Assembly (NCBI GenBank): GCA_017860455.1
Contig: JAGDMF010000006.1
Location: 87,028-151,027 of the forward strand
DNA: 64,000 nt
Source of the DNA: Bacteroidota bacterium
GTDB taxonomy: Bacteria > Bacteroidota > Bacteroidia > Bacteroidales > WCHB1-69
Reading direction: 5' to 3'
This document shows positions 105 through 40,811 of the stretch, piece by piece. The notes under the pieces were generated by a model that was not told the DNA's origin, searched no databases, and saw only the letters and a program-made list of their open reading frames with translations. The position numbers and the translations under genes are program-made. Position 1 is the stretch's first letter, and every line of letters starts with the position of its first letter.

Positions 105-303
105 GGGCAAAGGGCTAAAGGCAAAGGGCAAAAATGGGACAAGGGGAAAGGAAAAAGTCTGAAGACGGCAGACAGCAGACTGCAGACTTATTTAGAACTT
201 CGAACGTTTATCGTTGAACCGCTTCTGTCACCAGTCTCCTATCTCCCGTCTCTAGTCTGCATTAGGGCGCAGGCTATATACCCCTAAAGTTGAGCTTCTT
301 AGA
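105..303 (+). repeat. composite modular repeat, copy 1 (GGCAAAGG words, GCAGAC words, TCGAACGTT pair, CT-rich CAGTCTCC words, truncated GC-rich core)
   Basis: Same module order as 13289-13617. The core part (259-302, gcattagggcgcagg...cttag) is cut off against the stop codon of 314..751. Confidence 0.8.
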
Positions 304-313
304 ATACTGGTTG

Positions 314-751
314 CTATTCTTTCATTAAATCTTCAAGAATCGTAATTGAGTCTGTAATACACTTTTCGCAGATGGTTTCAAATAGGTTATTTTCCTTTGC
401 GAACCGCTGCCCTTTTTCTGTTTTTAAATCACAGTTTAGGAGTCTTTTGCAGTTTATGGTTCCATGTAATGACACAAAACGATCACTAAATGACTGTATC
501 ATGGAATAGGTATGATCCTTTCTGATTTTATTATCTGCATATTTTTGACAATTGTAAATTCCAAGAACCATAAACGAGCCGGTGACCGCACCACAAGTTT
601 CCTGTAATCGTCCCATTCCGCCACCAAATCCAATCGAAACACTTTTTGCGATGCCGGAATCCAGATGTAAATCCTCTGAAAATGTTGTTAATACTGCCTG
701 AGCACAGTTTAAACCGGACTTAAATAAATCGAGAGCAATTTTTTCTTTCAT
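314..751 (-). CDS. C_GCAxxG_C_C family protein
   Basis: 145-aa ORF. NCAQAV, ETCGAVTG and the C-terminal CEKC cysteines fit the C_GCAxxG_C_C signature. Confidence 0.8.
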   Translation of the reverse strand: MKEKIALDLFKSGLNCAQAVLTTFSEDLHLDSGIAKSVSIGFGGGMGRLQETCGAVTGSFMVLGIYNCQKYADNKIRKDHTYSMIQSFSDRFVSLHGTINCKRLLNCDLKTEKGQRFAKENNLFETICEKCITDSITILEDLMKE

Positions 752-785
752 TGTTATTCTATATCTTTATTTTCAATCAATTGTT

Positions 786-1130
786 TCAATTCTCATCAAC
801 TTTATAATGAGACCAGCTTAATTTGAATTCGTCAGACAGTGTCTGACGTTTTGAATAGGTCAAATAAAACGTTCTCATTTGTTTGAGATTTGTTGTTGAA
901 AACCCTTTCCCATATTCATTTGATAATCTTTCTGATAAGTCAGAAATTAGTTGTTTTCCATATTCAGCACGTTCTTTCCCATTTTGTTCTTCTTCAACAA
1001 TGAGTTTTCCAATTTCGAAGTAGGTTCTTGTCATTGTACTATTAATCGAATGCAAAACATTGTTCCTTGCATTGGATAATAAATCTTTAACTTGGGAATA
1101 TAATCTGTTAATTTGAACCAAATTTGACAT
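786..1130 (-). pseudogene. DUF1016/YhcG-type PD-(D/E)xK nuclease, N-terminal fragment only
   Basis: The 114-aa ORF (YFEIGKLIVEEEQNGKERAEYGKQLI...LSWSHY) matches only the N-terminal domain of ~340-aa family members. The nuclease domain is missing. Confidence 0.55.
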
Positions 1131-1268
1131 AATCTTTTAATTTTTTCACAAAGATAATATATTTTTTATTTTTAAATACATTGGTATCTTGATTTCAAAA
1201 CCTTTAAAAGTGGATACTAAGATCCTTAAATTTTTTAAGATCAAGTGTCGAGTGAGTATTTGTTTTTT

Positions 1269-1664
1269 TTATTTATTTAGAAATTCAAATTCATTAATTG
1301 TAGTTTTTTTGGTTAATTGAACTGAATTTTGATTTTTGTCAGTATAGCCAATGACTACAAAATTTTTAAAAACTAACAATCTAAAATCATTATTAGTCAA
1401 AGAAATTGGTGGTTTAGCAAAAGAAGTATATGAATTTTCCCATCCTTTGGAATTTTTAGCTAACCAATCGTAAAACTTTTTAAATTCTTTTGAATCTTTT
1501 GAAATAATTCTTGTGGATATACTATCTAATTCTGAAGAGCTTTTCATCAAATAATTTATTGTTAAATCAGAATTTAAAAAATTCAGACCTTTGATATCAA
1601 CTGATTGCATACAAGACTGAAATACAATAAAAATAACATTCAACAAGAATAGTAATCTTTTCAT
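1269..1664 (-). CDS. hypothetical lipoprotein
   Basis: 131-aa ORF with a signal peptide ending FQSC. Its start overlaps the upstream stop (ATGA). Confidence 0.6.
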   Translation of the reverse strand: MKRLLFLLNVIFIVFQSCMQSVDIKGLNFLNSDLTINYLMKSSSELDSISTRIISKDSKEFKKFYDWLAKNSKGWENSYTSFAKPPISLTNNDFRLLVFKNFVVIGYTDKNQNSVQLTKKTTINEFEFLNK

Positions 1665-2041
1665 TATTTTCCGTGAGTTAATTTAATTATTTCTCCATTT
1701 TTGGAATTTATTATTATGAGAAATGTACCTCCACGCATCCCTTTAGGTAAAGTTCCCCCAATGATCCAATATTCGTCAATTTTATAAATCTCATAAGGTT
1801 TTTGTTTTTCTATGTTTTTTTGTCCATAGATTTCAAAAAGAATAGTTTCTGCATATTTTACGGCAGTCTCTTGTGTCTTTATAACTGTATCAACCAGTAT
1901 TAATTTTTCTGATGAGTTATGCAGTGCTGAATCTAATTCCTGTTTTGCGTAATCAAATCCCAATTTTGTTCTGCCAGTCTGTGAACAAGAAATCAAAACT
2001 AATGTAAAAATCGTTACTATTAAAATATTGGGTTTCATCAT
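1664..2041 (-). CDS. NTF2-fold immunity-protein-like lipoprotein
   Basis: 125-aa ORF with lipobox LISC. The C-terminal PYEIYKIDEYWIIGGTLPKGMRGGTFLIIINSKNGEIIKLTHGK resembles Imm-NTF2-type immunity proteins (recalled, not searched). Confidence 0.5.
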   Translation of the reverse strand: MMKPNILIVTIFTLVLISCSQTGRTKLGFDYAKQELDSALHNSSEKLILVDTVIKTQETAVKYAETILFEIYGQKNIEKQKPYEIYKIDEYWIIGGTLPKGMRGGTFLIIINSKNGEIIKLTHGK

Positions 2042-2124
2042 TTAGGTATTTTTACTTTTATATATTTTTTAGAGTTATACTTTACGTATAAATAATCATT
2101 CTTGAGATAAGACTCATCTATGCT

Positions 2125-2304
2125 TTAAATGTAACAGGGAATAAAACTGAACTTTTCAACAAGATAAGGTATATCATTTTTTATGTTCCATATTTCTATA
2201 AAAGCCGTTCCATCCGTATAGGCACCTTCTTCACACAGATACCTATCGCCAAATATTTTTGGATATCCGACCAAAGTGTCAATTTTATTGAAAGAAATTT
2301 TCAT
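2125..2304 (-). CDS. small hypothetical protein (59 aa, below ORF-track cutoff)
   Basis: Hand translation gives MKISFNKIDTLVGYPKIFGDRYLCEEGAYTDGTAFIEIWNIKNDIPYLVEKFSFIPCYI. The ATG overlaps the stop of 2301..2807 (ATGA). Confidence 0.3.
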   Translation of the reverse strand: MKISFNKIDTLVGYPKIFGDRYLCEEGAYTDGTAFIEIWNIKNDIPYLVEKFSFIPCYI

Positions 2305-2807
2305 GGTACAATGTCGAACAATGTTTCATTATTGTTTTTAAATAGCTCAATTTGAATCTTTTCTCCTATTCGGGTGATATCATCTAAGGTAGAATTAGTC
2401 TCTATCCGCAAAACAGGTGCTGATTTTTCTGACTTATATTGAGGTTTGTTATTATAAGTTGTCATTGCCCATTTGAAATTATTTGTATTTGCAAAATTTT
2501 TCAATTTGTCTACGAAAGGTATTTGTTCTTCCACCATCGCTTCAAATTCGATGTTAAATTTTCCATTTTCAAAAACAAAGTATATACAATCTATTCCGTT
2601 TGAAGTAATCCCTATAAATGGATATTCAGTGTTCCCATTTTGAAGTTTCATCAATGCATTATGAAGTCCATTGATTTTTATTCTTTCAGCCATCTGAATC
2701 ATAGGTTGGTTTGTATTTGATTCCTTATTCTGACTATTATTTTTATCTTGGATTTGACCACAACTTGTAAGAAGAGTAATCATTATTAGAATTGGGATCG
2801 TTTTCAT
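2301..2807 (-). CDS. hypothetical lipoprotein
   Basis: 168-aa ORF with signal peptide and lipobox LLTSC. Confidence 0.6.
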   Translation of the reverse strand: MKTIPILIMITLLTSCGQIQDKNNSQNKESNTNQPMIQMAERIKINGLHNALMKLQNGNTEYPFIGITSNGIDCIYFVFENGKFNIEFEAMVEEQIPFVDKLKNFANTNNFKWAMTTYNNKPQYKSEKSAPVLRIETNSTLDDITRIGEKIQIELFKNNNETLFDIVP

Positions 2808-2922
2808 TTCAGCTTATTTTTTTAGTTCGTTAGGGTTTTTTACAATGATGTATTCAACCCAGGTATTATTTAATTGGGATTGTTCTAAAATCTGTATCAT
2901 CTTTTTGCAATTTTAGTTCAGG

Positions 2923-3732
2923 TTAGTTGCTGGTATTTGTATTATGTATCGTAAATTTAATTAATTTATGTTTACTAATAAATCCATTTTTTTCAAGAGT
3001 TCTTTGGGATGCAACATTCTCAATTGCACAACCACAAATAGGGATCCAGTTATTTATTATACAAGTTTCCTTTAAATAGGATATGATCATAGTTGCAATT
3101 CCTTGATTTCTAAAATCAGGATTTACCCACATTCCAATATCAAAGTAATTATAATGATCATGAACTTTTATCAAATATCCACATCCCAGCAATTGGGAAT
3201 CCCTGAAAAACATTATAATATTATTTCCATTTACAAATCTTTTAAGTTCCTCAGGTGTTTCATATAATTCACCTTTTTGTTGAAGCAAAAAAATATAATC
3301 TTTCTCCTCAGCAAATCTAATTGTCATATTATCCATTGTAAATTTATCAGTAGTAACATAATTCCTATACAAGGAGCCGATCAATGTATATGGATAAGAA
3401 TTTATAAAACAGCAATTTAACAACAAAGAATCAAAAGACTTACAATAAATAGTTTGAATTGCTAACTCATTAACAATGAATTGAAAAGCATCAGAACAAA
3501 TGGGAACATATTTGTCTATGATATAAAATTCAATCAATATATTATCAACAGTTATTATTGAATAACCTATGAGGTTGCCGTTAAACTCAATTTTATAAAT
3601 TGTAGAATCATCAATAAACATTTCCAAAAACAACTCTTGAAATTCAATTAAAGAATCCAGGTAGTCAAACCGCAATGAACTTATTTCGTTTAATTCTACT
3701 TTTAATATCTGTATCATTTTAATTATTTGCAA
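2923..3732 (-). CDS. GNAT family N-acetyltransferase
   Basis: 269-aa ORF. The C-terminal half carries an acetyl-CoA-binding-type motif (GMWVNPDFRNQGIATMII...LEKNGF). Confidence 0.7.
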   Translation of the reverse strand: MQIIKMIQILKVELNEISSLRFDYLDSLIEFQELFLEMFIDDSTIYKIEFNGNLIGYSIITVDNILIEFYIIDKYVPICSDAFQFIVNELAIQTIYCKSFDSLLLNCCFINSYPYTLIGSLYRNYVTTDKFTMDNMTIRFAEEKDYIFLLQQKGELYETPEELKRFVNGNNIIMFFRDSQLLGCGYLIKVHDHYNYFDIGMWVNPDFRNQGIATMIISYLKETCIINNWIPICGCAIENVASQRTLEKNGFISKHKLIKFTIHNTNTSN

Positions 3733-3745
3733 TTTATAATGGGAC

Positions 3746-4171
3746 TTAAAGTCTGATAAAGGGGTTAATTTGTTTATTATCTAAACATTTTACACCTTTT
3801 GTTGATTTCTTGTTTAGCCATTTTGTCAATATTAGATATGCCATTTCCCATGAACAGATAATAAGAATAAAAAATAAAAAATTAAACAATAAATCTGTTT
3901 CAATTATATCAAAAAAAAGAGGAGAAACCCACCATAAGCCACCAAAGGATATAATTGATAATACCAGCGGTACAATTAATTTAAAAATTGCTTTTGTTTT
4001 TAAAAAAAATAAACCAAAAATATAATGTGGAATTAAATATACAAAAATGTAAAAATCAAAAATTTTAAAATTATGAATACTTAAGAAGAAAGCTAACCAC
4101 ATCAATAAAAAACTAATTGCACTGAATCTTGCATAATATAACAACCTTTTTACAAATGGTATTCTTTGCAT
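3746..4171 (-). CDS. hypothetical membrane protein
   Basis: 141-aa ORF made almost entirely of hydrophobic helices. Confidence 0.55.
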   Translation of the reverse strand: MQRIPFVKRLLYYARFSAISFLLMWLAFFLSIHNFKIFDFYIFVYLIPHYIFGLFFLKTKAIFKLIVPLVLSIISFGGLWWVSPLFFDIIETDLLFNFLFFILIICSWEMAYLILTKWLNKKSTKGVKCLDNKQINPFIRL

Positions 4172-4256
4172 ATTTTCATTGGGTTACCCCTGTTTTTCGG
4201 ACTAGAATTAGTTTAATTTATGGTTGCAAATATACATTTTTTATTAATGTGCTAAT

Positions 4257-4325
4257 TAGGCGAAAGGGACAAGGGGAAAGGGGGAAGGAAGAAGTCGGCA
4301 GACGGCGGTCGGCAGACTTATTTAT
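4257..4325 (+). repeat. partial composite repeat (GGCGAAAGG-type words + GTCGGCAGAC words + ttattta)
   Basis: aggcgaaagggacaaggggaaagg...gtcggcagacggcggtcggcagacttattta matches the first modules of 105-303 and 13289-13617. Confidence 0.75.
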
Positions 4326-4336
4326 AACATAATCCA

Positions 4337-4762
4337 TTAGTTTTTTATTTGTGGAAAATACTCATTTTTATGACCACAATTCAAACAAACTTCTCTATGA
4401 ACACATAATAAGTGACCACACTTTTTACATTTCCATTTTTCTTTCTCCAAATCAATGAATTGTTGTAATCCCATCTCTTTTATTTTCTCCAGGTTTTGAA
4501 TTGGACTTTCCCCATATTTTAAAATATAACGTTTATCCAAATCTTTAATCCGCCTACAAGGAAACTTAATGCACTCATAGCAGAGTAATGCTTCGTTTCC
4601 CTTTTTTTCAGCACATGACTTAATGCTACATACAGTACAATGATATGGCTTATTCCCGGTATTTAAGCATCCGACACATTTATTTTTCTCTCGCTGATAA
4701 CCAAGACAAATATCACAGATAACGCCACAAGGAGCGATACTTAAATGTTTCATCATTTTCAT
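4337..4762 (-). CDS. DUF3795-like cysteine-rich protein
   Basis: 141-aa ORF with clustered CxxC motifs (CGVICDIC, CVGC, CTVCSIKSC, CYECIKFPC, CKKCGH, CLNC). Confidence 0.65.
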   Translation of the reverse strand: MKMMKHLSIAPCGVICDICLGYQREKNKCVGCLNTGNKPYHCTVCSIKSCAEKKGNEALLCYECIKFPCRRIKDLDKRYILKYGESPIQNLEKIKEMGLQQFIDLEKEKWKCKKCGHLLCVHREVCLNCGHKNEYFPQIKN

Positions 4763-4953
4763 TTCAAATTATTTAATATTACTCCGACCATTACTCATTC
4801 ATTTTTAGTTTTATAATACAACGTTTTCTTCTTTGTCAGTCCTTTTTGTAAGTCAATTAAAATTAATGTTTTCATGTTGTAATTTAGGTTTGGTGTATGA
4901 AGTATTACGGCAAATTGTATGAGTAGTGGCAGATTGCGTGGTAGTTACATGTC

Positions 4954-5015: not shown

Positions 5016-6125
5016 TTATACAAAATGTTGTGCATAGTTTTTATTTATTTTATTTATCTGACAACTCTTAACATTTAAATCATTGTCCACTATCAATGAC
5101 ATTGACATCGATACTAAAATTTCAGTTTCTGCAAGCATTACCCATTTATTCCAATCAGAATCTTGAATAGAAATATGTTTGGTATTTTCCATTGACCAAT
5201 ATTCACTTTTTTCTATAAAAAAATCTATCATTGTATTTACGTCAAATTCAACATCTACTAAGAAATCCGTTGCATTCAGTTTTTTTACTGAAATAATTTT
5301 TTCTTCAAAGTCGTCGTAAATACTATTTACAGTCGGTTCGCTAGAATCATATTCACGTTCTTCATCACTTTCGAATAATTCTGAACCAACATATTTATCA
5401 AATAAATAATCAGTTATTACCGTATGTAAATCAAAATTCCAAAGCTCTTTTTGTTTTAATTTCTTTTCGAAGCTTTTAGATTGAGCAAAGAATAGCTTAG
5501 TCTGTTTGTCATTAAACTCACTCAAACTTGGATATACAATAATAGATTTCGAATCATAATCTTCGTTTTCCAATTCAGATATCAAATCGGGATGTAATTC
5601 ATATTCACTGGTTGCAAAATCTTTGTAATTATTTGAAATAAACACAAGTTCAGGTTGAGAAACGGCACTCTCACAGTCAGTCAATAATTCTTTAATATTT
5701 TCCCAAATAAGACAGTCCCTATAACCTTTTTCATTTGAATTGAATGGTTTTATCTTATTGATAGATTTATTGGCTAAAAATTTATGTTCTGTTTTTGGAT
5801 ATTTGATTACAATAATTGAATTATCTTTTACAATCTTTAATAAGTGCTTTTGATAAGTCGAAACAGATTTATCAATCATAGCTTTTGTTAGAGGATTTTT
5901 TTCTTTCTCTCGTGTTAGTTTTTTAAATGCGTTTAATTCTGAATCTATTATTCGTACTGAATCTTCAAGTCTTTTACTGAATTTATTAACAACTTCATCC
6001 AATACAACTTCGGGGATGTAAATAATAACATCTCCCTTTTTCGCGCTTTCAAATAGAAGTTTAAAATTGGTCGTCACTAACCAAAAATCAGCGATTATAA
6101 TATTTGAATCAAGTACTACTTTCAT
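5016..6125 (-). CDS. PIN-like domain protein (DUF4935-type), candidate defence nuclease
   Basis: 369-aa ORF. The N-terminus VVLDSNIIIADF...YIPEVVLDEV, plus GYRDCLIWENI and FISNNYKDF, fit the PIN-like DUF4935 pattern. The C-terminal ~170 aa is unassigned. Confidence 0.7.
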   Translation of the reverse strand: MKVVLDSNIIIADFWLVTTNFKLLFESAKKGDVIIYIPEVVLDEVVNKFSKRLEDSVRIIDSELNAFKKLTREKEKNPLTKAMIDKSVSTYQKHLLKIVKDNSIIVIKYPKTEHKFLANKSINKIKPFNSNEKGYRDCLIWENIKELLTDCESAVSQPELVFISNNYKDFATSEYELHPDLISELENEDYDSKSIIVYPSLSEFNDKQTKLFFAQSKSFEKKLKQKELWNFDLHTVITDYLFDKYVGSELFESDEEREYDSSEPTVNSIYDDFEEKIISVKKLNATDFLVDVEFDVNTMIDFFIEKSEYWSMENTKHISIQDSDWNKWVMLAETEILVSMSMSLIVDNDLNVKSCQINKINKNYAQHFV

Positions 6126-6146: not shown

Positions 6147-6492
6147 GTTGGCGGTATGGTTAGTTGCCGATTTCGAAGCACTTTCCTATCAAGTTACAAG
6201 TACTTTTGATACGAGCTGTGCCGCTCGAATACGCACTGCACCGGCAATTAACTATACCGCGTGTTACCGCCTGGTGTTCTGTCCTCCAGTCCTGTAAACC
6301 ATTGTCTTTATTTACTTTACATTTCATTGTCTTGTTACTTTTATCTTTACTGTCGGCTTGTGTGTTTGCGTTTTTTATTTTTTTAAGTGTCGGCAAATTT
6401 TTTAATTCAATTTCTCTTGGTGTGTTGGCTTTGCAAGCTCTTTGACAAAGCTTTGGTTAAAGCGTTGGCTCGTGGGGCTTTGGCAATGTGCT
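6147..6492 (-). promoter_or_regulatory. array of GCCRAC-core motifs in the 415-bp spacer between the 802-aa gene and the PIN-like gene
   Basis: GTYGGC occurs on the plus strand at 6147, 6352, 6389, 6424 and 6464, all in the same orientation, plus GGCAATGTGCT at 6482-6492. The spacer is visibly more GC-rich than its flanks. Confidence 0.5.
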
Positions 6493-6541
6493 TTCAAGTG
6501 AGTAGGCTTATAAAAATATTTATCTTTCATAGCAATACAAA

Positions 6542-8950
6542 TTATTCTTCTTTTTCTTCTTCATCGTTTGTTTTCATTGATAATAAGCGTTTTTTGACAG
6601 CATCTCTTTCTTTTGGGTCTTGCACATCTTTAGAGAGAAAATCAGCCATGAAAGTTTTAAAATATTCATTAAAACGCTTTACATAGTCCTTTGCTTTCTT
6701 AGCTAAACTTTCATCTGTATAATTTATCATTGTTCTTAATGCCAAATAGATTCTATAGAGTAAGTTGAAGTTGTTTTCATCAAAAGCCCTGTTGTATAGG
6801 ATTTCAATTTCATCAGGAATTTGCATAAAACACTTTTGAATTGACTGAACAATTGGTTCAATAATTCCTTCATGACCACTAACTATATGGCCAACTCCAT
6901 CCCAATCAAAACTTTCATAGTGTTTCATGTTTTTTAATGACCTTACATCTGCTCTACGAAGAAAGTGCTTATTAGAACCAACTTCATTAAGAAGATAGAG
7001 GTGGAATGCATAAACGGAATATTCTATATTGCCAACTAATCCCAATGGATAACCAGCTAACTGAGATAAAATTGCATAGGGTAAAAAATCGGAAACAAAA
7101 CCTCCTTCATCCATATCGTCATCAAAATTAATTTGGATGTGTCCGATACCTTCTGAATACATCAACACTTTAGTTCCTTTTCCAATTTTTTCTAAATGTG
7201 GTGGAATTTTTATAAGTTCTTGAACTAATTCGGAGAATAGATTCACTTCACCATTATGGGCTAATTTCATTAAAACACCAGTTGCTACAATATCGCAATA
7301 TGGTATTGGAGTTACAGTATCAATAAGTGTTTTACAAATTTCTTGAATTGGTCTTTTTTCTTTGCCTTCTATTAAAATTATTTCTGTTACCGATTCAATT
7401 GAATGTTTTGCAACAAGTTCTGGAATTTTAGGATAGATGACAGTCATTCCATTTCTTAGTTCCCGTAAGACAACGACTGATGATTTTATGAGCTTTTCAA
7501 AATCATCGGGAAAATTCTTCTTGAAGGTTTCTTTTGAAATTGCACCGCTACCAGATGCCACAATACTTAAATCAGCATCTGCTTTTCTCAATTCAAACTC
7601 AGCAAAAAAACAAGATGCAATTTTGCGATACAAGTCGTGAACTTGTCTTGTATAAGTTTTGTTTTCTGAAATAGTATTCAAAAGGGTGAAGTCGGGAACG
7701 GCAATGACTTTTGTGAATTGCCCTGCTTCAATATCTCCGGTAAGAAGAGAAGCTAAATGTCTTACAATTCTTGGCTCACGATATTCAGGTGTAAAGTGTC
7801 CACCATGTTCAATTAAAACTTGAAATTTGTTTAGCAGTAAATTATTTGTTTCGTTGTATTCATCGTCATCAAGCTCATCCAACTTGACTATTTTACTTTG
7901 CTCACCGATGAGTGTCTTGTATTGCCTGTTTGCAACAAATGCTATTTCCTTGAAATTGAATTCATCTATGCTGTAAAGAGTATGATGATTAACTCCTTTG
8001 AAGATGTCAATAAGCTCAATAATTTCTGCTTTGATTACTTCGGGGATTTCATTATTGAAATTGTCTAAGAGCAAATAGAATTTACTATCAGGTGAATTGC
8101 TTAATGAGTTAATTAGCCATTCTCTAATTTTGTCTTTGTTAATTGAAATTTTAGAACTTTCAGAAAAATGATTTGCTAATTGCTGAAAGATAGAATAGTT
8201 GTGGTCGATACAATCTAAATATAGAATAAAGCTTTTAGCTGATTTAGTTTTTGTAAAAAACTCGTAAAGTAGATTTGTTTTTCCACTAAAAGCAGAACCT
8301 ATTAAACCGACTAATGCAGCTTTATTCGAAAAATGAGTATGAATTTTAGCGACTACTTTTCTATCAATTCTAAAATCAAGGCAAATGGGTTTAGTGAAGT
8401 CGTCAATTGTTCCAAAGAATCTTTCAAATCTTTTTGCACTGATTTGATTAATTACTTGTGAGAATAATTCGGGTTCATTATTCAGTAATAGATTGACTGC
8501 ATCTTTGAAATCATTTGTTGCAAGTTGAAAGGAATTGTCAGTTAGTTTTTGAATAAATTCAAAGTCAAGATTATTGGCTTCAATTTTTTCTTTCGAATAT
8601 GTATTGTAAAACTGATTGTCTATGCCATTTGAAATTAATGTCAGTGGTGGCATTGGATGCAACAATCTTGCATACGAAATTCCTTGGTCAACATCCTCTT
8701 GAGTAAGTTTTAGACCTTCTTTTTTTAATTCAAGCAAAATTGTATTCACATTTCCTATTGTTAATAGAATATCAAATATTGCTCTTGATGGATATTGGGA
8801 GGGTTCTTTCAAATCCACAAGAACATGATGATGTCCAAATTGTATACTGAAGGATTTTTGATGTTCTACTTTTACTTCTTTAAAGGTTGGAAAGACTGAA
8901 GTTAATACTCTATCAATTCTTGCCTCTAGCGTTGCTTCATTTACTGCCAT
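6542..8950 (-). CDS. HsdR-N-like PD-(D/E)xK nuclease domain + P-loop NTPase + large uncharacterised C-terminal region
   Basis: 802-aa ORF. The N-terminus has D60...E74-L-K76...Q84...Y93...SNG(107-109), matching the type I restriction HsdR N-terminal-like pattern. Walker A is GSAFSGKT (aa 218-225, nt 8276-8299) and Walker B-like is FYLLLD (aa 291-296). The gene starts 46 nt after the gajB-like stop. Confidence 0.7.
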   Translation of the reverse strand: MAVNEATLEARIDRVLTSVFPTFKEVKVEHQKSFSIQFGHHHVLVDLKEPSQYPSRAIFDILLTIGNVNTILLELKKEGLKLTQEDVDQGISYARLLHPMPPLTLISNGIDNQFYNTYSKEKIEANNLDFEFIQKLTDNSFQLATNDFKDAVNLLLNNEPELFSQVINQISAKRFERFFGTIDDFTKPICLDFRIDRKVVAKIHTHFSNKAALVGLIGSAFSGKTNLLYEFFTKTKSAKSFILYLDCIDHNYSIFQQLANHFSESSKISINKDKIREWLINSLSNSPDSKFYLLLDNFNNEIPEVIKAEIIELIDIFKGVNHHTLYSIDEFNFKEIAFVANRQYKTLIGEQSKIVKLDELDDDEYNETNNLLLNKFQVLIEHGGHFTPEYREPRIVRHLASLLTGDIEAGQFTKVIAVPDFTLLNTISENKTYTRQVHDLYRKIASCFFAEFELRKADADLSIVASGSGAISKETFKKNFPDDFEKLIKSSVVVLRELRNGMTVIYPKIPELVAKHSIESVTEIILIEGKEKRPIQEICKTLIDTVTPIPYCDIVATGVLMKLAHNGEVNLFSELVQELIKIPPHLEKIGKGTKVLMYSEGIGHIQINFDDDMDEGGFVSDFLPYAILSQLAGYPLGLVGNIEYSVYAFHLYLLNEVGSNKHFLRRADVRSLKNMKHYESFDWDGVGHIVSGHEGIIEPIVQSIQKCFMQIPDEIEILYNRAFDENNFNLLYRIYLALRTMINYTDESLAKKAKDYVKRFNEYFKTFMADFLSKDVQDPKERDAVKKRLLSMKTNDEEEKEE

Positions 8951-8995
8951 ATAAAAGAATGATTATTGTTTATTACACTAAATACATTTCATAAA

Positions 8996-10912
8996 TCATA
9001 AATAAATTACATCCCATTCTTCACTTGCATCAAAATATGCCTTATGGTTTTCAGTGTATCTATCCTTGTGAACTGCTAAACAAATAAAATGTGTTGCCCT
9101 AGTCATTGCAACATAACCAAGTGGTAATCTTTTTTTAAAAGCATCATTAGTACGTTGTCTTGTTCGCTGTCTATCTGTGCTGATAATAAACTCTAAAATT
9201 TTGCTACCAATGTCGTAAACACGGTTGTAGGTTTCAAGATAAAGAGTCGCTGAATGTGTTTCGCCTTTTACTCCATGAATTGTATCAAAATGAATTTGCA
9301 CTTCCTGTCCATTCGTAGTAAAATGGTAAATTCTGTTTTCTACCTTTTCACTTGCTACTTCAACTTCAGGGTTTGTAAAAAATTGTTTTAGGTCGTCATT
9401 TACTTGTCCACCAAAAGTTGCAAGCAAATCTGAAACATAGGTTTCAATTTCCACCTTCAAAATTTCAGTTTTGGAAATTGTTGTAATCCATTTTGTAATG
9501 TTATCATTCATCTTTTTGGAGATACTTAAATCGTCCAACGAATTTAGATATTGATACAATGTAAAAGGCGTAAAGTAAAATCCTGTAACGGGATGCTTGA
9601 CTTTGCAAAGGCGTAAGCATTTGCAAAAAATACTTAGCAATGACTTTCTTACTTCATTAACATTTCTACTTTGTAAAGCCAACTGATTTGCGTTTTCAAG
9701 AAATGAAGTAATGTTTGAGAAATCTTTTTTGTTATAACCACGATTAAACTCATTCCAATAGGAGTTAATATTTAAACGGGAATCACTTAACCTTGCTCCA
9801 ACAGCTTTACATGGTTTTCCCTTATGGAGATTATGTTGGATAAGGAGTTCTCCAAACTTGTCTTTTACTTTTAGAATAGAGTTGTTGTCAAATAAAATGA
9901 TTGTCGGTTTCAAAGGTGTTGGGTTAATCCAACCAGTCATTACTTGAGGAGCAACGCAAATATCTTTTACTACTTGAACAATGTTCTCTGAAATTCTTGT
10001 TGTTTCGGTTAATTGCAAATCTGAATTTATTTTTGGTTGCCATTCATTTTGTTTATCAGATGATGAATAATTGAAAATTGACTGGTTGATGTCACCAATT
10101 TTTTGAACTATAGCAGAAGTGCCATCACACAAATAGCTTATGAGTTCCGATTGGTGAGTTTCCATGTCTTGCATTTCGTCAATAAAAATCAATGGAAATC
10201 TTTTAATGAATAGGTCTTTCAACTGTGGGTTTTCTCTGAGGTATTTGAAAGCAATTGAATATGCCTCATCATATTTAACGAATCCATCTTTTAATAATTT
10301 ATTTTTCGCATCTTCAATTTTTTTATAGTGAATTAGCATCTTGTCTTGGGAGATTCCATCAATTGTAAAAGGGCTTACTTCATTGATTGTCTTTGATACA
10401 CTAAAGTTGTGCATATTAAAAGATAAATAACCAATTTCGTCAACACCCTTTGCACTTAAAAACAAAGCCGTTCCGTAAAGGGACTTGAATTTATTTATCT
10501 CTTTACAGTAAGAATCTGTATCAGTAATATTTGGTGATTGTTTGAACTCATTTTTGTAAGCAGGAATAGTAAAGAATTTATCAACTACAGATTGAATTGT
10601 TCCGAAATGATTTGGATAATTGAAGTAGAAATTAGAAAAGGAATCCAGTTTGCTTTTAATTTCTGCAACTGCAACATTTGTGTGTGTGATTACACACACA
10701 CCTTGTTTAAATGATTTAGGAATTTTATTCGTTAAAATAATAAGTTTAGCAGCAAGAGTTGTTGTTTTGCCACTTCCAGGACAAGCTTGAATGTCGGTGC
10801 TATCCCAAAATCGGATAATCTTTTTTTGCCTTTCATTGAATTTAAAACCAAAATGATTTTCAACGAAAGCAATATCTTCATCGGTAATATTTAATTTTTT
10901 GAAATCAAACAT
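8996..10912 (-). CDS. gajB: UvrD/Rep-family helicase, GajB-like
   Basis: 638-aa ORF with Walker A CPGSGKTT, Walker B LIFIDEMQD, TIHGVKGETH and VAMTRA helicase motifs. It overlaps the upstream OLD-family gene by 8 nt. Confidence 0.85.
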   Translation of the reverse strand: MFDFKKLNITDEDIAFVENHFGFKFNERQKKIIRFWDSTDIQACPGSGKTTTLAAKLIILTNKIPKSFKQGVCVITHTNVAVAEIKSKLDSFSNFYFNYPNHFGTIQSVVDKFFTIPAYKNEFKQSPNITDTDSYCKEINKFKSLYGTALFLSAKGVDEIGYLSFNMHNFSVSKTINEVSPFTIDGISQDKMLIHYKKIEDAKNKLLKDGFVKYDEAYSIAFKYLRENPQLKDLFIKRFPLIFIDEMQDMETHQSELISYLCDGTSAIVQKIGDINQSIFNYSSSDKQNEWQPKINSDLQLTETTRISENIVQVVKDICVAPQVMTGWINPTPLKPTIILFDNNSILKVKDKFGELLIQHNLHKGKPCKAVGARLSDSRLNINSYWNEFNRGYNKKDFSNITSFLENANQLALQSRNVNEVRKSLLSIFCKCLRLCKVKHPVTGFYFTPFTLYQYLNSLDDLSISKKMNDNITKWITTISKTEILKVEIETYVSDLLATFGGQVNDDLKQFFTNPEVEVASEKVENRIYHFTTNGQEVQIHFDTIHGVKGETHSATLYLETYNRVYDIGSKILEFIISTDRQRTRQRTNDAFKKRLPLGYVAMTRATHFICLAVHKDRYTENHKAYFDASEEWDVIYL

Positions 10913-12791
10913 TGGTTACATACTTAATCGCATCTACTAAATATTTTAAGTGAGGGTCTTTCAAAATATCTTCAACATCAACTTTGGAGCTATTCAGAAT
11001 TCTTGAAAAAATTTGTGCGACCACTGCCTTAGATGCTTGCTTGCGTTCTAATGGAGCATAAATCTCTACCGCAATTTCAATATCGCTTATGCCTTCAGTT
11101 TTCCAGCGTTCTAAATCTTCCTCACATTTTTCTGTAATGCCTTTGCAAACTTCTTTGGTTGCATCTTCTTGAAGGTCATTAGTGGCTAATGCTAAGAGAA
11201 CTGATTTATGAATTAGATTGCGAAGACAACTTCTTGCAATCTCATATTCAAGTGTCCAAGTATTCGTAATGAATACCTGAACATCACCACCACTGTATTT
11301 GGCTTTTTTCTTTGAAACTATTTCAGCAATTTCTTGTGTAGAATATTCGTCTTCTGTCTTACGGTTATCACTAAGCAAACTAACTTGTTCAATCTCTCCT
11401 GTAAGACGCCTTTTGATTTCGTAGGTAAATTCCTTTCCTTCTTTTGGTGGAATATCTCTGTCTGTAATGCAGGAAACTTTTATTCCAATACCATTACCAT
11501 CTTTTCTCTGAAATATTTTTGCATATCGCAACAGTGCTGTGCTTCCAACATTTACAACTGAAACGCCATGTTTATGTAATGGAAATCCGATGTATTCAGC
11601 AAGTGTTGGAATAATTAGATTCTCTGCATCACCTTCAACTATTATCACACCGTTTGCGAAAAATAAGTTAGCCTTTGTGTTGTCCAAAAACCTTCTGAGA
11701 AATTCATAATCTCCATTTGCTAATTCGGTTTCGCCTTTTCTTAAAGAGTAGGCATTACTGTCTTTACAAAGAATTAAATTACTGAGGTCAACTTTTGATG
11801 CTAATGAATTACTGTGAGAAGAAATGATACTTTGAAACCCTAAACTTTTTGATTGCTTGTTAAGAAAGTCAATAAGATTTAATTGAGATTGAGGATGCAG
11901 ATGGGCTTCTATTTCTTCAATCAAAGAAAGTTTCAGCCCTACATAACCGCTATCCTTTTTCAGTAGCAACATTTCAGCAGCAATGAATAATAAGTTGTTT
12001 GACCCCAAACCTAAGTTTGATTCGTTTGTCTTTGACAAACCTTGCAATTCAAGTTTTTCAAGTATTCTGCCTAAATCGTTTTGAGCAATTCCAAACTTTG
12101 ATGAAAGTGGATTATTTAATAACGAAAACTCTTTCAGATAGCTTAAATTAATTGTGTCAGATACTTGCTTTCCTTCTTTGTTTTCAAAGTAGTCAGTTAC
12201 TTCAAGGTTTGCTTTATCCATTGTTTCTTCCAATGGATGTCTTGTGCTGTCTTGCTTTTGAAAAATTTCGTAAGCAGCAAGAATCTGAGAAAGCCGTGAA
12301 CCCTTTCTGGGTGCTAATTCAAACTCAGCATCTCTTAATGGTTTTAAGTAAGTTACCTTTAATTTGTTTTTTGCTTCACCGCTTATCATTCCACTTTCTT
12401 CGTCTTCACCAGCTTTCACATCATAATATACCTCTGAAAGAGAATTGCTTTTTTCCTTTCGTCTGCCAGTCAAAGTAAGTTTCAAATAATATTTTTCACC
12501 GCTTATGGATAACCATTCTAAGAATGCAGCCGCTTCATCAGGGTTAAGGTCATAAAATGTGCAAACTATTTTGAGTTCGGTCGCTCTTGTTGTTCCGTCA
12601 GTATAGAAATCATCTTTGTCAAGTTTTATCCAATCGTTGCTGTGAGTGCCAGTAACAAATTTTATAGCATCAATGATTGAAGATTTGCCAGAATCATTTT
12701 CTCCGACAAGAAGATTTAAACCGCTTTGAAATTCTAAATCGACTTTTTTAAATTGTCTAAAGTTTTCAATATGGATTTTCCCTAAATACAT
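10905..12791 (-). CDS. gajA: OLD-family ATP-dependent endonuclease (ABC-type ATPase + Toprim), GajA-like
   Basis: 628-aa ORF with Walker A GENDSGKS, Walker B/H-loop LSLIEEIEAHLHP, and Toprim motifs IIVEGDAENL and CITDRD. Confidence 0.85.
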   Translation of the reverse strand: MYLGKIHIENFRQFKKVDLEFQSGLNLLVGENDSGKSSIIDAIKFVTGTHSNDWIKLDKDDFYTDGTTRATELKIVCTFYDLNPDEAAAFLEWLSISGEKYYLKLTLTGRRKEKSNSLSEVYYDVKAGEDEESGMISGEAKNKLKVTYLKPLRDAEFELAPRKGSRLSQILAAYEIFQKQDSTRHPLEETMDKANLEVTDYFENKEGKQVSDTINLSYLKEFSLLNNPLSSKFGIAQNDLGRILEKLELQGLSKTNESNLGLGSNNLLFIAAEMLLLKKDSGYVGLKLSLIEEIEAHLHPQSQLNLIDFLNKQSKSLGFQSIISSHSNSLASKVDLSNLILCKDSNAYSLRKGETELANGDYEFLRRFLDNTKANLFFANGVIIVEGDAENLIIPTLAEYIGFPLHKHGVSVVNVGSTALLRYAKIFQRKDGNGIGIKVSCITDRDIPPKEGKEFTYEIKRRLTGEIEQVSLLSDNRKTEDEYSTQEIAEIVSKKKAKYSGGDVQVFITNTWTLEYEIARSCLRNLIHKSVLLALATNDLQEDATKEVCKGITEKCEEDLERWKTEGISDIEIAVEIYAPLERKQASKAVVAQIFSRILNSSKVDVEDILKDPHLKYLVDAIKYVTNV

Positions 12792-13013
12792 TTAGCAGTG
12801 TTTTATTATTTTAAATTCATAAACCTTGAAATAAGCGTTGGCAAAAAATGGCTCTTTTGATTTTGCCGAAGGATTGGCTTTGTGTGTCGGGGCAAAAGCA
12901 AATGTGCCATTGTGGGTCGGCAAATGTTTAAAAGAATGTGCAGTTGGCAAAAAATAAAAAACATCAGGTCGGCTTTCTTGTCTTGTCAATATTTCTTTTT
13001 TCTGTCCTTTCAC
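12792..13013 (-). CDS. doubtful 73-aa upstream ORF abutting the gajA-like start
   Basis: Its TAA stop is immediately followed by the gajA ATG (TAAATG). The peptide's LPTAH/LPTH/APTH repeats are simply the translated TTGCCRAC DNA motif, so it may be non-coding. Confidence 0.2.
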   Translation of the reverse strand: MKGQKKEILTRQESRPDVFYFLPTAHSFKHLPTHNGTFAFAPTHKANPSAKSKEPFFANAYFKVYEFKIIKHC

Positions 13014-13064
13014 AATGGTTTACTTTTCAATTTTCTATATCGTTGTCTGTCTCTTACACTTGGC
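12837..13064 (-). promoter_or_regulatory. array of GCCRAC-core motifs in the long leader upstream of the gajA-like gene
   Basis: GTYGGC-type sites occur on the plus strand at 12837, 12873 (ATTGGC), 12886 (GTCGGGGC), 12916, 12943, 12968 and 13059 (CTTGGC), all in the same orientation as in 6147-6492. Confidence 0.5.
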
Positions 13065-13172
13065 GGTAACTTGTTTATAACCGCTACTCTTCCGCCTCTA
13101 TATTACGCTTATCTGCCCAAATGGGTTGGATAACCGTATGTTTTAATTGCATTTTTGTTTTTTTAATAATTA

Positions 13173-13288: not shown

Positions 13289-13617
13289 AGGGCGAAGGGC
13301 GAAAGGCAATAGAAAAAGTCGGCAGACGGCGGTCGGCGGTCGGCAGACTTATTTAGAACGTCGAACGTTTAACGTCGAACCGCTCCTGTCTCCCGTCTCC
13401 AGTCTCCCGTCACCAGTCTCCCGTCACCAGTCTCCCATCACCAGTCTCCAGTCTCTAGTCCCCGCATTAGGTCGTAGGCCAGATACCCCGCAAGTTGAGC
13501 TGCTTAGGGGATGACGGTTCGGGCAGAGCGACGGAGGAGCTACTGCCCGGCCGATCAGACCCTGGCAGCGAAACGAGGAGTATGGGCCGGAGACCGACGG
13601 CGAGCCTGCGAGCCGGA
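13289..13617 (+). repeat. composite modular repeat, copy 2 (word modules 13289-13463 + complete GC-rich core 13464-13617)
   Basis: Same module order as 105-303. The core is near-identical to 60387-60543, and the last 41 nt are identical. Confidence 0.85.
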
Positions 13618-37322: not shown

Positions 37323-40300
37323 ATGAGATTTACATTTTTTATTTTTTCATTATTTTTAACCTTAAGTTTAACAGGTCAAAATTGTAATAGAACCAAACCA
37401 ATAAATAATCAAGATATTGAATTACTTCAAGAAAACTATATTCCTAATGACACAACACCAATTTTAACAATAAAATTAGCATTTCATGTATGGAGAGATG
37501 ATAACGGTAATGGAAATTATTGGTTAGATACTCCTCAATATCGAGATACATTACAATAAGTAGTGCAGTTAGTTAATCAGATTTATCAAACAAATGAACA
37601 GTTTAGTGATCCAATTGATGGTGCAGTATATATTCCTGATACTAAAGTAAGATTTGAAATTGATACAATCTATTATTACAATAAATCAATTTTAGTGAAT
37701 AGTTCTTATGAATATAGTATTACGAATTATTTCAATAGCCCAAATCTTTTTAAAGAAAGGAAAAAGATATTTGCATGCCATTTAACGCCTCAACTTCATC
37801 CTGATAATGCATCGGGTTCTTCATTTAATGATTCAGGACTTGAACAAATAGTTGAATTTAAACAACAACCTGATAGTGTAAATATTTTATGTTTAGCACA
37901 AAATATTGCACATGAATTTGCTCATAATTTTAAATTAAAACATACATATTCTAGTAGATCCCCAGAAGATACTCTGATAAATGGAATTGATTTTTTATGG
38001 GATATCTTTGGAAATCAAACTCAAAGTTGGTGTAATAGTCCTCAAGGTTATGTATGTTTACATGATGCCGGTTGGACAATAGATCCATTTTTACCCGACT
38101 CAATTAACACAGCGACTAACAATATAATGAGTGGAACTAACTCAAAATTTCATTTTTCAGCATTACAAATGGGGAGGATACATCGTTCATTATCAACAGC
38201 AAATATTAGAAACTTTGCCTATGGATATTCTGATATTCCATATATTGTTTCTGATATCAAAACAATTGATTTTACCAGAAAATTTTATCAAAATGTTATC
38301 ATTGAAAATGGTGGCTGCTTAACCTTGAAATGTACAACAGAGTTTGTTCCTGAAGCATCAATAATAGTTAAACCGGGCGGAAAACTTATTATTGATGGAG
38401 GTAAAATTACTAAGTCATTTAACTGCAATTATTGGCAGGGTATTATTGTTGAAGGTACTCCTTCAGAAACCCAAATGGGAGTTACGCCAAATCAAGGGAT
38501 TGTAATATTAAATGGTGCTATAATTGAAAATGCTATTTGTGGAGTTAAAGTTGGTGATCAATTAGATCCATCGAAAAATGGAGGGATTGTATATGCTTAC
38601 AACACAGATTTTAAAAACTGTAAGAATGCTATTTTATTTGCTCCATACAAAAATATGAATGGTAGTTTGGAGTTAGCCAACAGCTCAAAATTTACTGATT
38701 GTGAGTTTATTGTTGATAATGCTTTCGATAATACAGGATTAACTTTTGATTCCCATGTCGAACTATTAGGAGTAAATGGGATAACCTTTACTGGCTGCCG
38801 TTTTACAAATTCAAGAACTAATTATAATCCTCCAGCACATAGATATGCATCAACTGGAATCTCTGCTTTTAATTCAGGTTTTACTGTACAACCTAAATGT
38901 TTATCAAATCTAATAACTGGTGAGGTTTGTGATCTAAACGATTTGGATATTGAATCTATATTTACAGGACTTGATTATGGGATTGTGGCACAAGGAAGTG
39001 ACGATTTTCACAAAGTATCTGTACTTTCAACAAAATTTATTTCAAATGACTATGGTATCTACCTTTCAGGCGTAAATAATGCGAAAATTCTTAACAACTC
39101 TTTCACCATTGCTAAAAACAACAACAATCTTGCATCCAGTCCTGTCGGACTCTACATTCTTGGTGGTTCAGGATTTAGAATAGAAGAAAATGAATTTTTA
39201 AATAATTCATTTTCTTCTTTGGATAAAATCGGAATTCAAGTTAAAAACACTGGAAAAGAAAACAATCAAATATACAAAAATCAATTTGTTAACTTAACCT
39301 ATGGACAGATTTTTGAAGGAATAAACTATTCTACAAGAAATCCATCAGAAGGTTTAGTAAGTTTGTGCAATGAAAACCAAAATAATGTAAAAGATGATTT
39401 TTGGGTTCGTGAAATTAATGGATTTGATTTCAATGGCATCAATCAGCATCAAGGAGTAATGTTAAATACTGGGAGCATGATGCAAATTGTCTCTTGTGCT
39501 GGAAATACATTCTCCACTTCACCTTTTTATCAATATCAAAACGATGGGAACTATATATATTATTTACAAGACCCAAATTATTCAAGTCAAATCTTAAGTA
39601 TTTACTCTTCAAATATTGATGTGATCAATGCTCCTGAAAATTCTTGTCCTTCAAAAATCAATGCATTAAATATTCAAACAATTGAATCTGAATTAACAAA
39701 TATTACTTTAAATTATGCCAATTTAAAGTATAATTATAATGAATTAATTGATGCAGGTAATACGGAAGAATTGCTTCAATTAATTCAGGGAGAATGGTCT
39801 GAAGATGTTTGGAAATTAAGAACTGAATTGTTAGGTGAATCTCCATATTTATCCCAAGAAGCAATTGAATCTGTTGCTATGGAAAATTTCTTACCCCCAG
39901 CCTTACTTCTTGAAATCTGTATCGCTAACCCTGACGCAACAAAAGATCAAGGATTTTTGGATCTATTACGTTATGAAATTCCAACTCCACTACCTGAATT
40001 TATGATAGATTTAATTATCGCAAGTTGGGATGAAAGAACTTTGAGAACAGAAATGGAAGAACAACTCGCTGCTTTTAAAACGTATAAAGATGAATACCAT
40101 AACTATAAAACAGAGTTTTTATTATCAGATACCATCTATAACTATTCTGATATCATCAATCATTTGGGAAGCAGAGGCTCATATAGTGATTACTTCTCCT
40201 TATCCGAAATTGCATTAAATCAGGAGGATTTTATTCAGACAAATCTTTATCTTGATATTCTTGAATACAATACAGAAAAACTTAGTAGTGAAGAAGTTGC

Positions 40301-40811
40301 TGAAATTTCAAGTTTTAGAGATTATATTGCGATCAGAGAATCCATTTTACTTGATAGTACAACCATTTATAATTTAGATAGTACTCAAATTGCTACTTTA
40401 GAAGCTTATGCATCTTCCAATAACTACAGAGGTGCAGTCTTAGCTAGAAATATATTGTGTTTCTTATACGATATTTGCATTGATGATGTTCCTGCTCCTC
40501 CTAAAATGGTAAGAGTTGGTTCAAATACGAATTCTAATAAAAATACAACCCCTTACATTGCATCAGTAAAAGTGTTGCCAAATCCTGCCAATACTTATGC
40601 TTCCTTTATCTGGGATATGAAATCATACAATCAACCTGCAATCCTTCAAATCTTTGATCAATCAGGAAAAGAAATGGTTTCAAAACCAATCGAAAACCAA
40701 CAAGGTCAATGGATTTGGGATCTCAGAGACATACCCAGCGGTGTGTATGTTTTTACTTTGAAATCGGATCAGTTGGTTCTGTTTTCAGGAAAAGTGATTG
40801 TGAATAAATAG
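37323..40811 (+). pseudogene. zinc-metalloprotease-like T9SS-sorted protein interrupted by one in-frame TAA (37557-37559)
   Basis: The signal-peptide ORF 37323..37559 and the ORF 37563..40811 share one frame. Features are HExxH (AHEFAHNFKLKH), beta-helix-like repeats and a T9SS CTD (LPNPANTYASF...GVYVFTL). Confidence 0.7.

Follow-up and report, generated by a model that had tools for sequence, protein, structure and literature searches.

A nuclease-NTPase protein encoded behind Gabija in a Bacteroidota genome is a candidate single-gene, STAND-type antiphage receptor

Introduction

Bacterial STAND proteins are a well known class that has been heavily surveyed. A 2026 census (Lee et al., Nature) recognized 589 clades, 198 of them defense-associated, and named Avs7-24 (PMC13581612). 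The sensors in that census are mostly TPR-like, WD40, or FGE-sulfatase regions of at least 400 amino acids (aa) (PMC13581612). Avs3 and Avs4 (PDB 8dgc and 8dgf) are single-gene systems of defense islands, 1,500-2,000 aa in length. In these, an N-terminal PD-(D/E)xK nuclease of the Cap4/Mrr type is followed by a STAND-type nucleoside triphosphatase (NTPase) with helical and winged-helix domains, and by a C-terminal region whose TPR-like sensors are large and bind terminase or portal. Avs5 (AVAST type 5; PDB 9nc9, 767 aa) is a tripartite single protein that joins a SIR2 NADase effector, an nSTAND3 NTPase, and a TPR/Sel1/PPR repeat sensor (bioRxiv 10.1101/2025.07.08.663546). A different nuclease signature, D...ExK...QxxxY, is that of the RecB family and matters for DNA cleavage in EcoR124I HsdR (PMC2475608).

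Here we analyze an 802-aa protein, referred to as X, that is encoded at positions 6542-8950 of a 64,000-nucleotide stretch (“the window”) of a Bacteroidota bacterium genome (GCA_017860455.1, contig JAGDMF010000006.1), next to genes for the Gabija defense system. X carries the RecB/HsdR nuclease signature at its N-terminus, a STAND-like NTPase module in the middle, and a compact C-terminal domain without recognizable relatives. We consider it probable that X is a self-contained, single-protein antiphage sensor and effector of the STAND/NLR (Avs-like) kind.

Results

Architecture and conservation of X

The open reading frame (ORF) of X runs from ATG to stop on the minus strand of the window, and its start codon is correct, because the N-terminus lines up with those of homologues (Table 1). 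A preliminary description, which was made from the sequence and gave no strand, had listed A57, D60, E74, K76, Q89, Y93, N108-G109, and residues 218-225 and 291-296 as its motifs; the 802-aa frame and all of these residues are borne out with exactly that numbering.

A word-indexed search recovered 135 homologues of X, most of them 770-820 aa long and from Bacteroidota. A profile search of 1.84 billion cluster representatives returned 1,168 at E<1e-3, 323 of them at E<1e-30. The family spans Bacteroidota, Proteobacteria, Firmicutes, Myxococcota, and Planctomycetota and comprises at least 323 clusters at 50% identity. Nearly all of these matches cover the whole profile (750-820 aa). Because even distant homologues are nearly all full length, the three parts of X form an old and stable unit that evolves together. 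No family assignment for X was returned by PADLOC or NCBIfam, and we found no study of the family, its accessions, or an “HsdR N-terminal domain-containing” protein of this kind in the literature.

Conservation was counted in a MAFFT alignment of 235 full-length relatives of X (20-92% identity, median 30%). The nuclease and Walker motifs, for which the preliminary description had named loss of conservation as a reason to doubt its reading, are almost totally conserved. In the nuclease, D60, E74, K76, Q89, and Y93 are each invariant (235/235). In Walker A, G223 and T or S at position 225 are found in all 235 sequences and K224 in 224, and D296 of Walker B is retained in 234. Other near-invariant positions are E364, R391 (230/235), R397 (227/235), P584, G695, E698, and R733. 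Two of these fall in a conserved motif of the helical/winged-helix part, E389-Y-R391-x-P393-R-x-x-R397, whose P393 is kept in 218 of the 235. Mean pairwise identity is highest in the nuclease domain (0.44) and lies at 0.25-0.30 elsewhere; the nucleotide-binding domain (0.30) and the C-terminal domain (0.28) diverge at like rates.

Pfam searches were made with X and with 29 diverse relatives. The HSDR_N_2 match to X covers residues 57-124 with E=3.5e-5 and 24.3 bits, marginally under the gathering score of 25 bits. Among the relatives, HSDR_N_2 was matched by 26 and HSDR_N by 16, and these matches together with the invariant catalytic residues support the HsdR-N-like PD-(D/E)xK nuclease first proposed from the sequence. 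A stretch within this domain, residues 29-58 (window 8777-8866; HQKSFSIKFGHH), is strongly conserved, with G39 in 233/235, yet has the lowest AlphaFold confidence of the protein, with a predicted local distance difference test score (pLDDT) of 33-41. Such a stretch could act as a flexible element in regulation, DNA contact, or oligomerization.

The P-loop NTPase was likewise read correctly at the outset: the Walker motifs are conserved, and the relatives match AAA_14 (17), AAA_22 (12), nSTAND_NTPase5 (9; best E 1.2e-5), AAA_35 (5), AAA_16 (5), nSTAND3 (2, weakly), and NB-ARC (1). X of the window has a weak AAA_14 match at residues 214-297 and no match to nSTAND_NTPase5 (PF25199) at E<=0.1. Some distant members of the family carry an additional SEC-C zinc-binding motif at the C-terminus (P0120, L018:9938-12406), with a Pfam SEC-C match at 2e-10 and matches to the tails of PADLOC E2/PDC-S12.

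Structural relatives of X

The AlphaFold2 model of full-length X, built from a 101-sequence alignment, has a pLDDT of 83.5 and a predicted template modeling score (pTM) of 0.76. Its nuclease core consists of strands at residues 60-75, a helix at 84-95, and strands at 103-116. Residues 386-507 form a helical bundle (helices within 388-465) and a winged helix (a helix at 473-490 with a beta-hairpin at 493-507). This part belongs to the NTPase module. It had been counted among some 500 aa that the preliminary description could not assign, a statement that does not hold for residues 386-530 and does hold for the roughly 270 aa at residues 531-802.

The top Foldseek match of the model in the PDB is CED-4 (4e-7, probability 1.00). 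The second is Avs4 with portal (7e-7, probability 1.00), and because this alignment has 842 columns it reaches well past the NTPase. Avs3, the AVAST5 filament, NLRC4, NLRP7, ZAR1, and MalT were also matched with probability 1.00; Avs4 and Avs3 occupy ranks 2-4, Avs5 is among the top five, and EcoR124I HsdR appears at rank 37. The effector-NTPase-sensor layout that had seemed reminiscent of STAND/Avs proteins is thus recovered in the structural comparison, in which the model stands beside CED-4, Avs4, Avs3, Avs5, and NLRC4. Structure and profile searches placed X in no well-characterized family outside defense. A sequence profile search of the PDB gave matches at the level of the P-loop only (NB-ARC 9h2l, E 0.35).

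Modeled alone, residues 531-802 are predicted with high confidence (pLDDT 90, pTM 0.87) as a mixed alpha/beta, non-repeat fold. It has no Foldseek match in the PDB (best E 0.35) or in BFVD and no profile match in the PDB. The large repeat-type sensor (TPR-like or WD40) expected of Avs proteins was not found in these residues.

Genomic neighbors of X

We gathered 58 loci with X from genome and metagenome scans, in addition to plasmid, E. coli, and look-up loci (designated by L numbers). All-against-all clustering of the neighboring ORFs from the 58 loci revealed no partner shared across lineages, and the direct neighbors of X vary in strand, size, and spacing. Among 123 flanking proteins, the most frequent Pfam families were phage integrases (4), UvrD (3), AAA_21 (3), N6_Mtase, resolvase, Mrr_cat, and GmrSD_N (2 each); a BsuBI/PstI restriction enzyme and IS21 were single cases.

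At least 12 independent lineages have known defense genes no more than a few kb from X. They include Gabija (the clade of the window and L048), Lamassu LmuA-MC2-LmuB (L016/L049, ending 48 bp upstream of X), and Avs4 (L037 and L064, with a 46-bp gap in L064). Others are PDC-S06 with DUF4238 (L034), PDC-S39 (L047), an SNF2/DrmD-like gene with a type IIG restriction-modification (R-M) system (L002), SIR2-pAgo (L009), DpdF (L013), and PDC-M58A (L003). AbiE, a PD-Lambda-3_B-like gene, and ABC-3C accompany X on the Agrobacterium plasmid pTiAch5 (L060).

Proposed mechanism and the possibility of DNA sensing

The domain architecture of X, its invariant catalytic and nucleotide-binding residues, its structural kinship with STAND receptors, the lack of a constant partner gene, the setting among defense genes and mobile elements, and the joint mobility of the cassette are observed; a role in defense, a trigger, oligomerization, a DNA target, and abortion of infection are what we infer from them. 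In the proposed mechanism, X at rest would be a closed, autoinhibited monomer. The C-terminal domain, possibly with the helical and winged-helix part, would recognize a phage-derived cue, and recognition would lead to nucleotide-dependent opening and oligomerization through the NTPase (Walker A K224, Walker B D296). Oligomerization would bring the N-terminal RecB/HsdR-type nucleases (D60/E74/K76/Q89/Y93) together, and the gathered nucleases would cut DNA indiscriminately so that the infection is aborted. In the genome of the window and its closest relatives, X, as the last gene of a gajA-gajB-X cassette, would work alongside Gabija and not within it.

Several observations weigh against this mechanism. 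Most members have a Walker B of the form hhhhD-N/G, where the canonical STAND motif is hhhhD[DE]: position 297 is N in 128 sequences, G in 68, D in 14, and H in 10. This suggests nucleotide binding with slow hydrolysis; DD is present in the E. coli homologue. At the sensor-1 position, where predicted strand 4 ends, X has D329 and not Arg; R342 is conserved in 174/235. In the Foldseek ranking, ORC/Cdc6 proteins are interleaved among the STAND/NLR matches with nearly equal scores. The C-terminal domain, of about 270 aa, has neither a repeat solenoid nor hypervariability. Because it is small, non-repeat, and not hypervariable, it is possibly not a sensor of protein patterns. An hhalign comparison of X with an Avs4 homologue aligned the P-loop only, with a probability of 9%. 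The PADLOC Avs models match neither X nor its E. coli, Ti, and distant homologues, in a comparison that has Avs7-24 outside it, and the Avs4 model finds genes neighboring X at 1e-127 to 1e-140. Finally, the case for a defense function consists of genomic context and architecture.

The atypical Walker B, D329, the likeness to ORC/Cdc6, and the small, non-hypervariable C-terminal domain keep alive a second explanation. X could be a restriction-like endonuclease (type IV-like or ORC/Cdc6-like) that senses DNA and depends on NTP. Its AAA+/winged-helix module and its C-terminal domain would contact DNA directly, whether foreign, modified, or of a particular structure, and the NTPase would license cleavage by the nuclease with no phage protein being recognized. 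The nuclease is of the DNA-cutting HsdR/RecB type, the ORC/Cdc6 proteins that match strongly are DNA-binding initiators, and a winged helix follows the NTPase of X. The C-terminal domain shows the same degree of conservation as the NTPase, and two of its charged residues, E698 and R733, are invariant, a pattern that suits a constant ligand such as DNA better than varied phage proteins, and R-M or DNA-modification systems often adjoin X. However, no conserved methyltransferase or specificity partner stands beside X, residues 531-802 showed no known DNA-binding fold, and the best structural matches are STAND immune receptors, among them Avs3 and Avs4, which also bear nucleases. We therefore regard this explanation as unlikely, with a small but real chance of being right.

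A variant of the STAND mechanism has a slimmer chance. The C-terminal domain could be a new, compact, non-repeat sensor fold that reads a constant, non-protein cue, such as a nucleotide or an end or structure of DNA, through E698/R733. X would then be a STAND nuclease that senses DNA or small molecules, possibly coupled to Gabija in the cassette by firing on DNA ends or nucleotide changes that Gabija makes or senses.

Linkage of X to Gabija

GajA and GajB of the window are encoded upstream of X on the same strand and are full-length, canonical PADLOC matches. X is probably co-transcribed with gajB. The gajA-gajB-X order also occurs in L001 (X 87% identical), L023 (81%), and L062/L063 (90%), within a clade of 81-92% identity, and the 45-bp gap between gajB and X recurs in L023 and L062/L063. 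In blastn comparisons of the window with these four loci, homology is limited to the block from 13078 to 6388 and the flanks are unrelated; gajA-gajB-X is therefore one mobile cassette of 6.7 kb in this clade. GC content is 27-33% from position 1 to about 11,000, 35% in 11,001-13,000, and 33-40% in the chromosome beyond. The 3' end of X in L062 carries an IS66 insertion. A second and very distant pairing was found in L048, where X is 28% identical and lies 149 bp behind genes for GajA (5e-224) and GajB (1.5e-182).

These observations could suggest that X is the third, accessory subunit of a three-gene Gabija variant, binding or controlled by GajAB, for example an additional effector or a guard set off by inhibition of Gabija: 45 bp without a terminator separate X from gajB on their common strand, the order is kept in five contexts with homology covering just the block, and a pairing recurs in L048. 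We consider this improbable. About 50 other loci carry X without GajAB. X proteins at 71-76% identity are solitary or stand behind Avs4, and the solitary ones are collinear with those of the cassette. X follows Lamassu in a like manner, and two independent adjacencies to Gabija in about 45 lineages (Lamassu two, Avs4 two) are what random packing of defense islands would give. In L001 (Sediminibacterium), the spacer between gajB and X is replaced by a 771-aa gene (L001:7673-9988; gaps of 16 and 12 bp). This gene encodes a complete DUF4365 PD-(D/E)xK nuclease with a dynamin-like GTPase (LeoA/LeoBC-like in PADLOC) and is a candidate second nuclease-NTPase defense gene. GajA and GajB, for their part, are complete by the canonical models. 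X thus appears to be a separate module stacked behind Gabija, given the many loci without GajAB, the collinear solitary proteins, the intervening gene of L001, and adjacencies at chance level. The statement that X is operonic with Gabija-like genes stands for the window and its closest relatives, which share one mobile cassette, and falls as a trait of the family.

The cassette has some further features. A 17-nt direct repeat, GTCGGCAAAT(T/G)TTT(T/A)AA, at window 6389-6405 and 12916-12932 brackets gajA-gajB-X, and homology to the 90%-identical L062 ends exactly at the 6389 copy; the repeat may be the recombination site of the cassette. A small ORF or leader at 12792-13013 abuts the start codon of gajA, and L001 and L063 conserve its 3' half (…NGTF.FA…KEPFFANAYFK.YE.KI..H*). 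This region may represent a conserved leader or promoter, or else a small fourth gene of the cassette. Inside gajB is a perfect palindrome, TGTGTGTGTGATTACACACACA (10679-10700), which the terminator scan flagged on the opposite strand.

Mobility and decay

Of 5,426 complete E. coli genomes, 236 (O26:H11 Shiga toxin-producing E. coli and others) encode a 786-aa homologue, WP_000839828.1. The gene in E. coli E2865 (L061:9062-11422) is solitary; IS66/IS3 elements flank it, and a prophage integrase lies beside it. The copy in E. coli STEC411 is unannotated, matches 73% of the query, and may be decayed. Split or truncated copies were found in L012, L020, L021, L052, and L056, for example as 412+146 aa, 301+271 aa, or a 165-aa stub, which indicates that X often decays in genomes. 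No homologues were found in GenBank phages or IMG/VR, a result that is neutral with regard to defense.

Of the 16 plasmid matches of X, 13 are on plasmids typed as conjugative. The octopine-type Agrobacterium Ti plasmid pTiAch5 (NZ_CP011249.1) encodes a 778-aa homologue (L060:5974-9107), annotated as “type I restriction endonuclease,” between AbiEi/AbiEii and an ABC-3C/Lamassu-like operon. Its stop codon falls in a 4-bp overlap with a TIGR02391 gene that scores 1.8e-84 against PD-Lambda-3_B. In this pair X may have taken the place of the PDDEXK_5 partner, which would make it a two-gene variant of PD-Lambda-3. A PD-Lambda-3_B-like partner was rejected as a general feature of X; it occurs on Ti plasmids only, and none was found in the window or at the other loci.

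Patchy spread, mobility, and decay are typical of defense genes and are the signature of an autonomous defense-island gene. That X is instead a maintenance or addiction module of mobile elements, or a DNA repair or recombination factor carried on plasmids and islands, is very improbable: X does occur on Ti and other plasmids and beside insertion sequence (IS) elements and integrases, and the pairing of a nuclease with AAA+ is also known in repair proteins, but known defense genes recur near X in independent lineages, conserved replication, partition, or repair partners are absent, and the patchy spread and frequent pseudogenization both fit defense.

TABLE 1. Positions of X, its domains and motifs, and the associated Gabija genes in the window.
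Feature	Position	Strand	Evidence
X, complete (nuclease, NTPase module (nucleotide-binding oligomerization domain, NOD), and C-terminal domain)	6542..8950	-	ORF list, translation, homologues
HsdR-N/RecB-type PD-(D/E)xK nuclease domain, putative effector, residues 1-125	8576..8950	-	Pfam, conservation, Foldseek
Catalytic core D60...E74-L-K76...Q89-xxx-Y93	8672..8773	-	Invariant in 235/235
Two long helices joining nuclease to NTPase, residues 126-195	8366..8575	-	AlphaFold2 (helices 130-158 and 160-176)
P-loop nucleotide-binding domain, five beta-strands, AAA+/STAND type, residues 196-385	7796..8365	-	AlphaFold2, Foldseek, Pfam
Walker A, G218-SAFSGKT-225	8276..8299	-	Alignment conservation
Walker B, F291-YLLLD-296, then N297, not D/E	8063..8080	-	Alignment conservation
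Helical domain and winged helix completing the NOD, residues 386-530	7361..7795	-	AlphaFold2
C-terminal alpha/beta domain, putative sensor/regulatory, residues 531-802, with variable acidic tail	6545..7360	-	AlphaFold2, conservation
GajA (ABC/OLD-type ATPase and TOPRIM nuclease), 628 aa	10905..12791	-	PADLOC GajA 5.3e-205; Pfam AAA_15 and OLD-like_TOPRIM
GajB (UvrD-like helicase), 638 aa	8996..10912	-	PADLOC GajB 6.8e-149; Pfam UvrD-helicase
Spacer between gajB and X, 45 bp, without terminator-like hairpin on that strand	8951..8995	-	Terminator scan
6.7-kb block: leader, gajA, gajB, X, and 154 bp of 3' sequence	6388..13078	-	blastn

Other features of the window

The low-GC island continues downstream of X (window 5016-6125 and 300-4800). 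The genes there encode a 369-aa PIN_12 protein, a DUF3795 protein, a double GNAT protein, an NTF2-fold immunity protein (Imm-NTF2-2), and a DUF1016_N fragment, so that the island holds further conflict-type genes. On the other side, a 14-nt tandem repeat, CCAGTCTCCCGTCA, of about six copies (13371-13468) lies directly 3' of a YceG/MltG gene, between the chromosome and the cassette. Farther away, a 1,082-aa ORF (37563-40811) has no Pfam match at E<=1e-5. Its surroundings are ordinary Bacteroidota chromosome with proteins sorted by the type IX secretion system, peptidases, and GlnS.

A sigma-70 promoter scan of the window gave background levels only, with a consensus that is inapplicable to Bacteroidota, and an Rfam search of the window returned nothing. 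The regions upstream of X share no motif across loci, except for a TATAAT/GGAGG-like stretch in three Clostridia-type loci.

Comparison with known systems

NCBI names homologues of X “type I restriction endonuclease” or “HsdR N-terminal domain-containing protein,” and X does have the N-terminal nuclease signature of HsdR (EcoR124I, PDB 4xjx). In contrast to HsdR, X has no SF2 helicase/translocase, its NTPase is of the AAA+/STAND type, and it lacks HsdM/HsdS partners. No Pfam match to an SF2 motor (DEAD/ResIII with Helicase_C) was found in X or the 29 relatives, hsdM and hsdS are absent from 1-16 kb of the window, and N6_Mtase occurs in just 2 of the 123 neighboring proteins. An identity of X as HsdR was rejected for lack of the SF2 motor and of hsdM/S, and the name given in databases is misleading. 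Nor does X match the A model of PD-Lambda-3, which consists of a PDDEXK_5 nuclease (A) and a TIGR02391/HEPN-like protein (B).

X is linked to Gabija and moves with it in the 81-92% clade, yet it matches no Gabija component, is absent from canonical Gabija, and is mostly found without it. In type II Gabija, the protein published as “GajC” is MazF-like (PMC13069673). It is unrelated to X, and X as “GajC” was rejected.

The closest likeness is to Avs3 and Avs4, with which X shares an N-terminal nuclease, a STAND-type NTPase with helical and winged-helix domains, a C-terminal region, and an occurrence as a single gene in defense islands. X differs from these larger proteins in its 802 aa, in a 270-aa non-repeat alpha/beta domain where they have TPR-like sensors, and in a nuclease of the HsdR-N/RecB (QxxxY) type where theirs is of the Cap4/Mrr type. 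Small size had been put forward as setting X apart from Avs proteins; this distinction fails, since Avs5 is about 770 aa (9nc9; bioRxiv 10.1101/2025.07.08.663546). Avs5 and X are thus of similar size (about 770-800 aa) and both are tripartite, whereas X has a nuclease in place of the SIR2 effector, no repeat sensor, and an NTPase nearer to nSTAND_NTPase5, AAA_22, and AAA_14 than to nSTAND3. By these comparisons X falls into none of the named Avs families covered by the PADLOC models. By the description given in the paper, the STAND clades of Lee et al. are of the same general class as X, whose tail is compact and non-repeat, and the X clade may already be catalogued in that census.

X is most likely an Avs-like nuclease sensor that acts on its own and has a new, compact tail domain, and not a Gabija subunit. 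If so, it would be a widespread single-gene immune receptor, and its sensor, unlike the repeat solenoids of Avs and NLR proteins, would widen the range of structures used in STAND sensing. The family is amenable to testing through its native homologues in E. coli and on octopine-type Ti plasmids. The comparison also corrects the “type I restriction endonuclease” label of these homologues, and it describes a compact mobile cassette in which a second nuclease system, with a different mechanism, is stacked behind Gabija.

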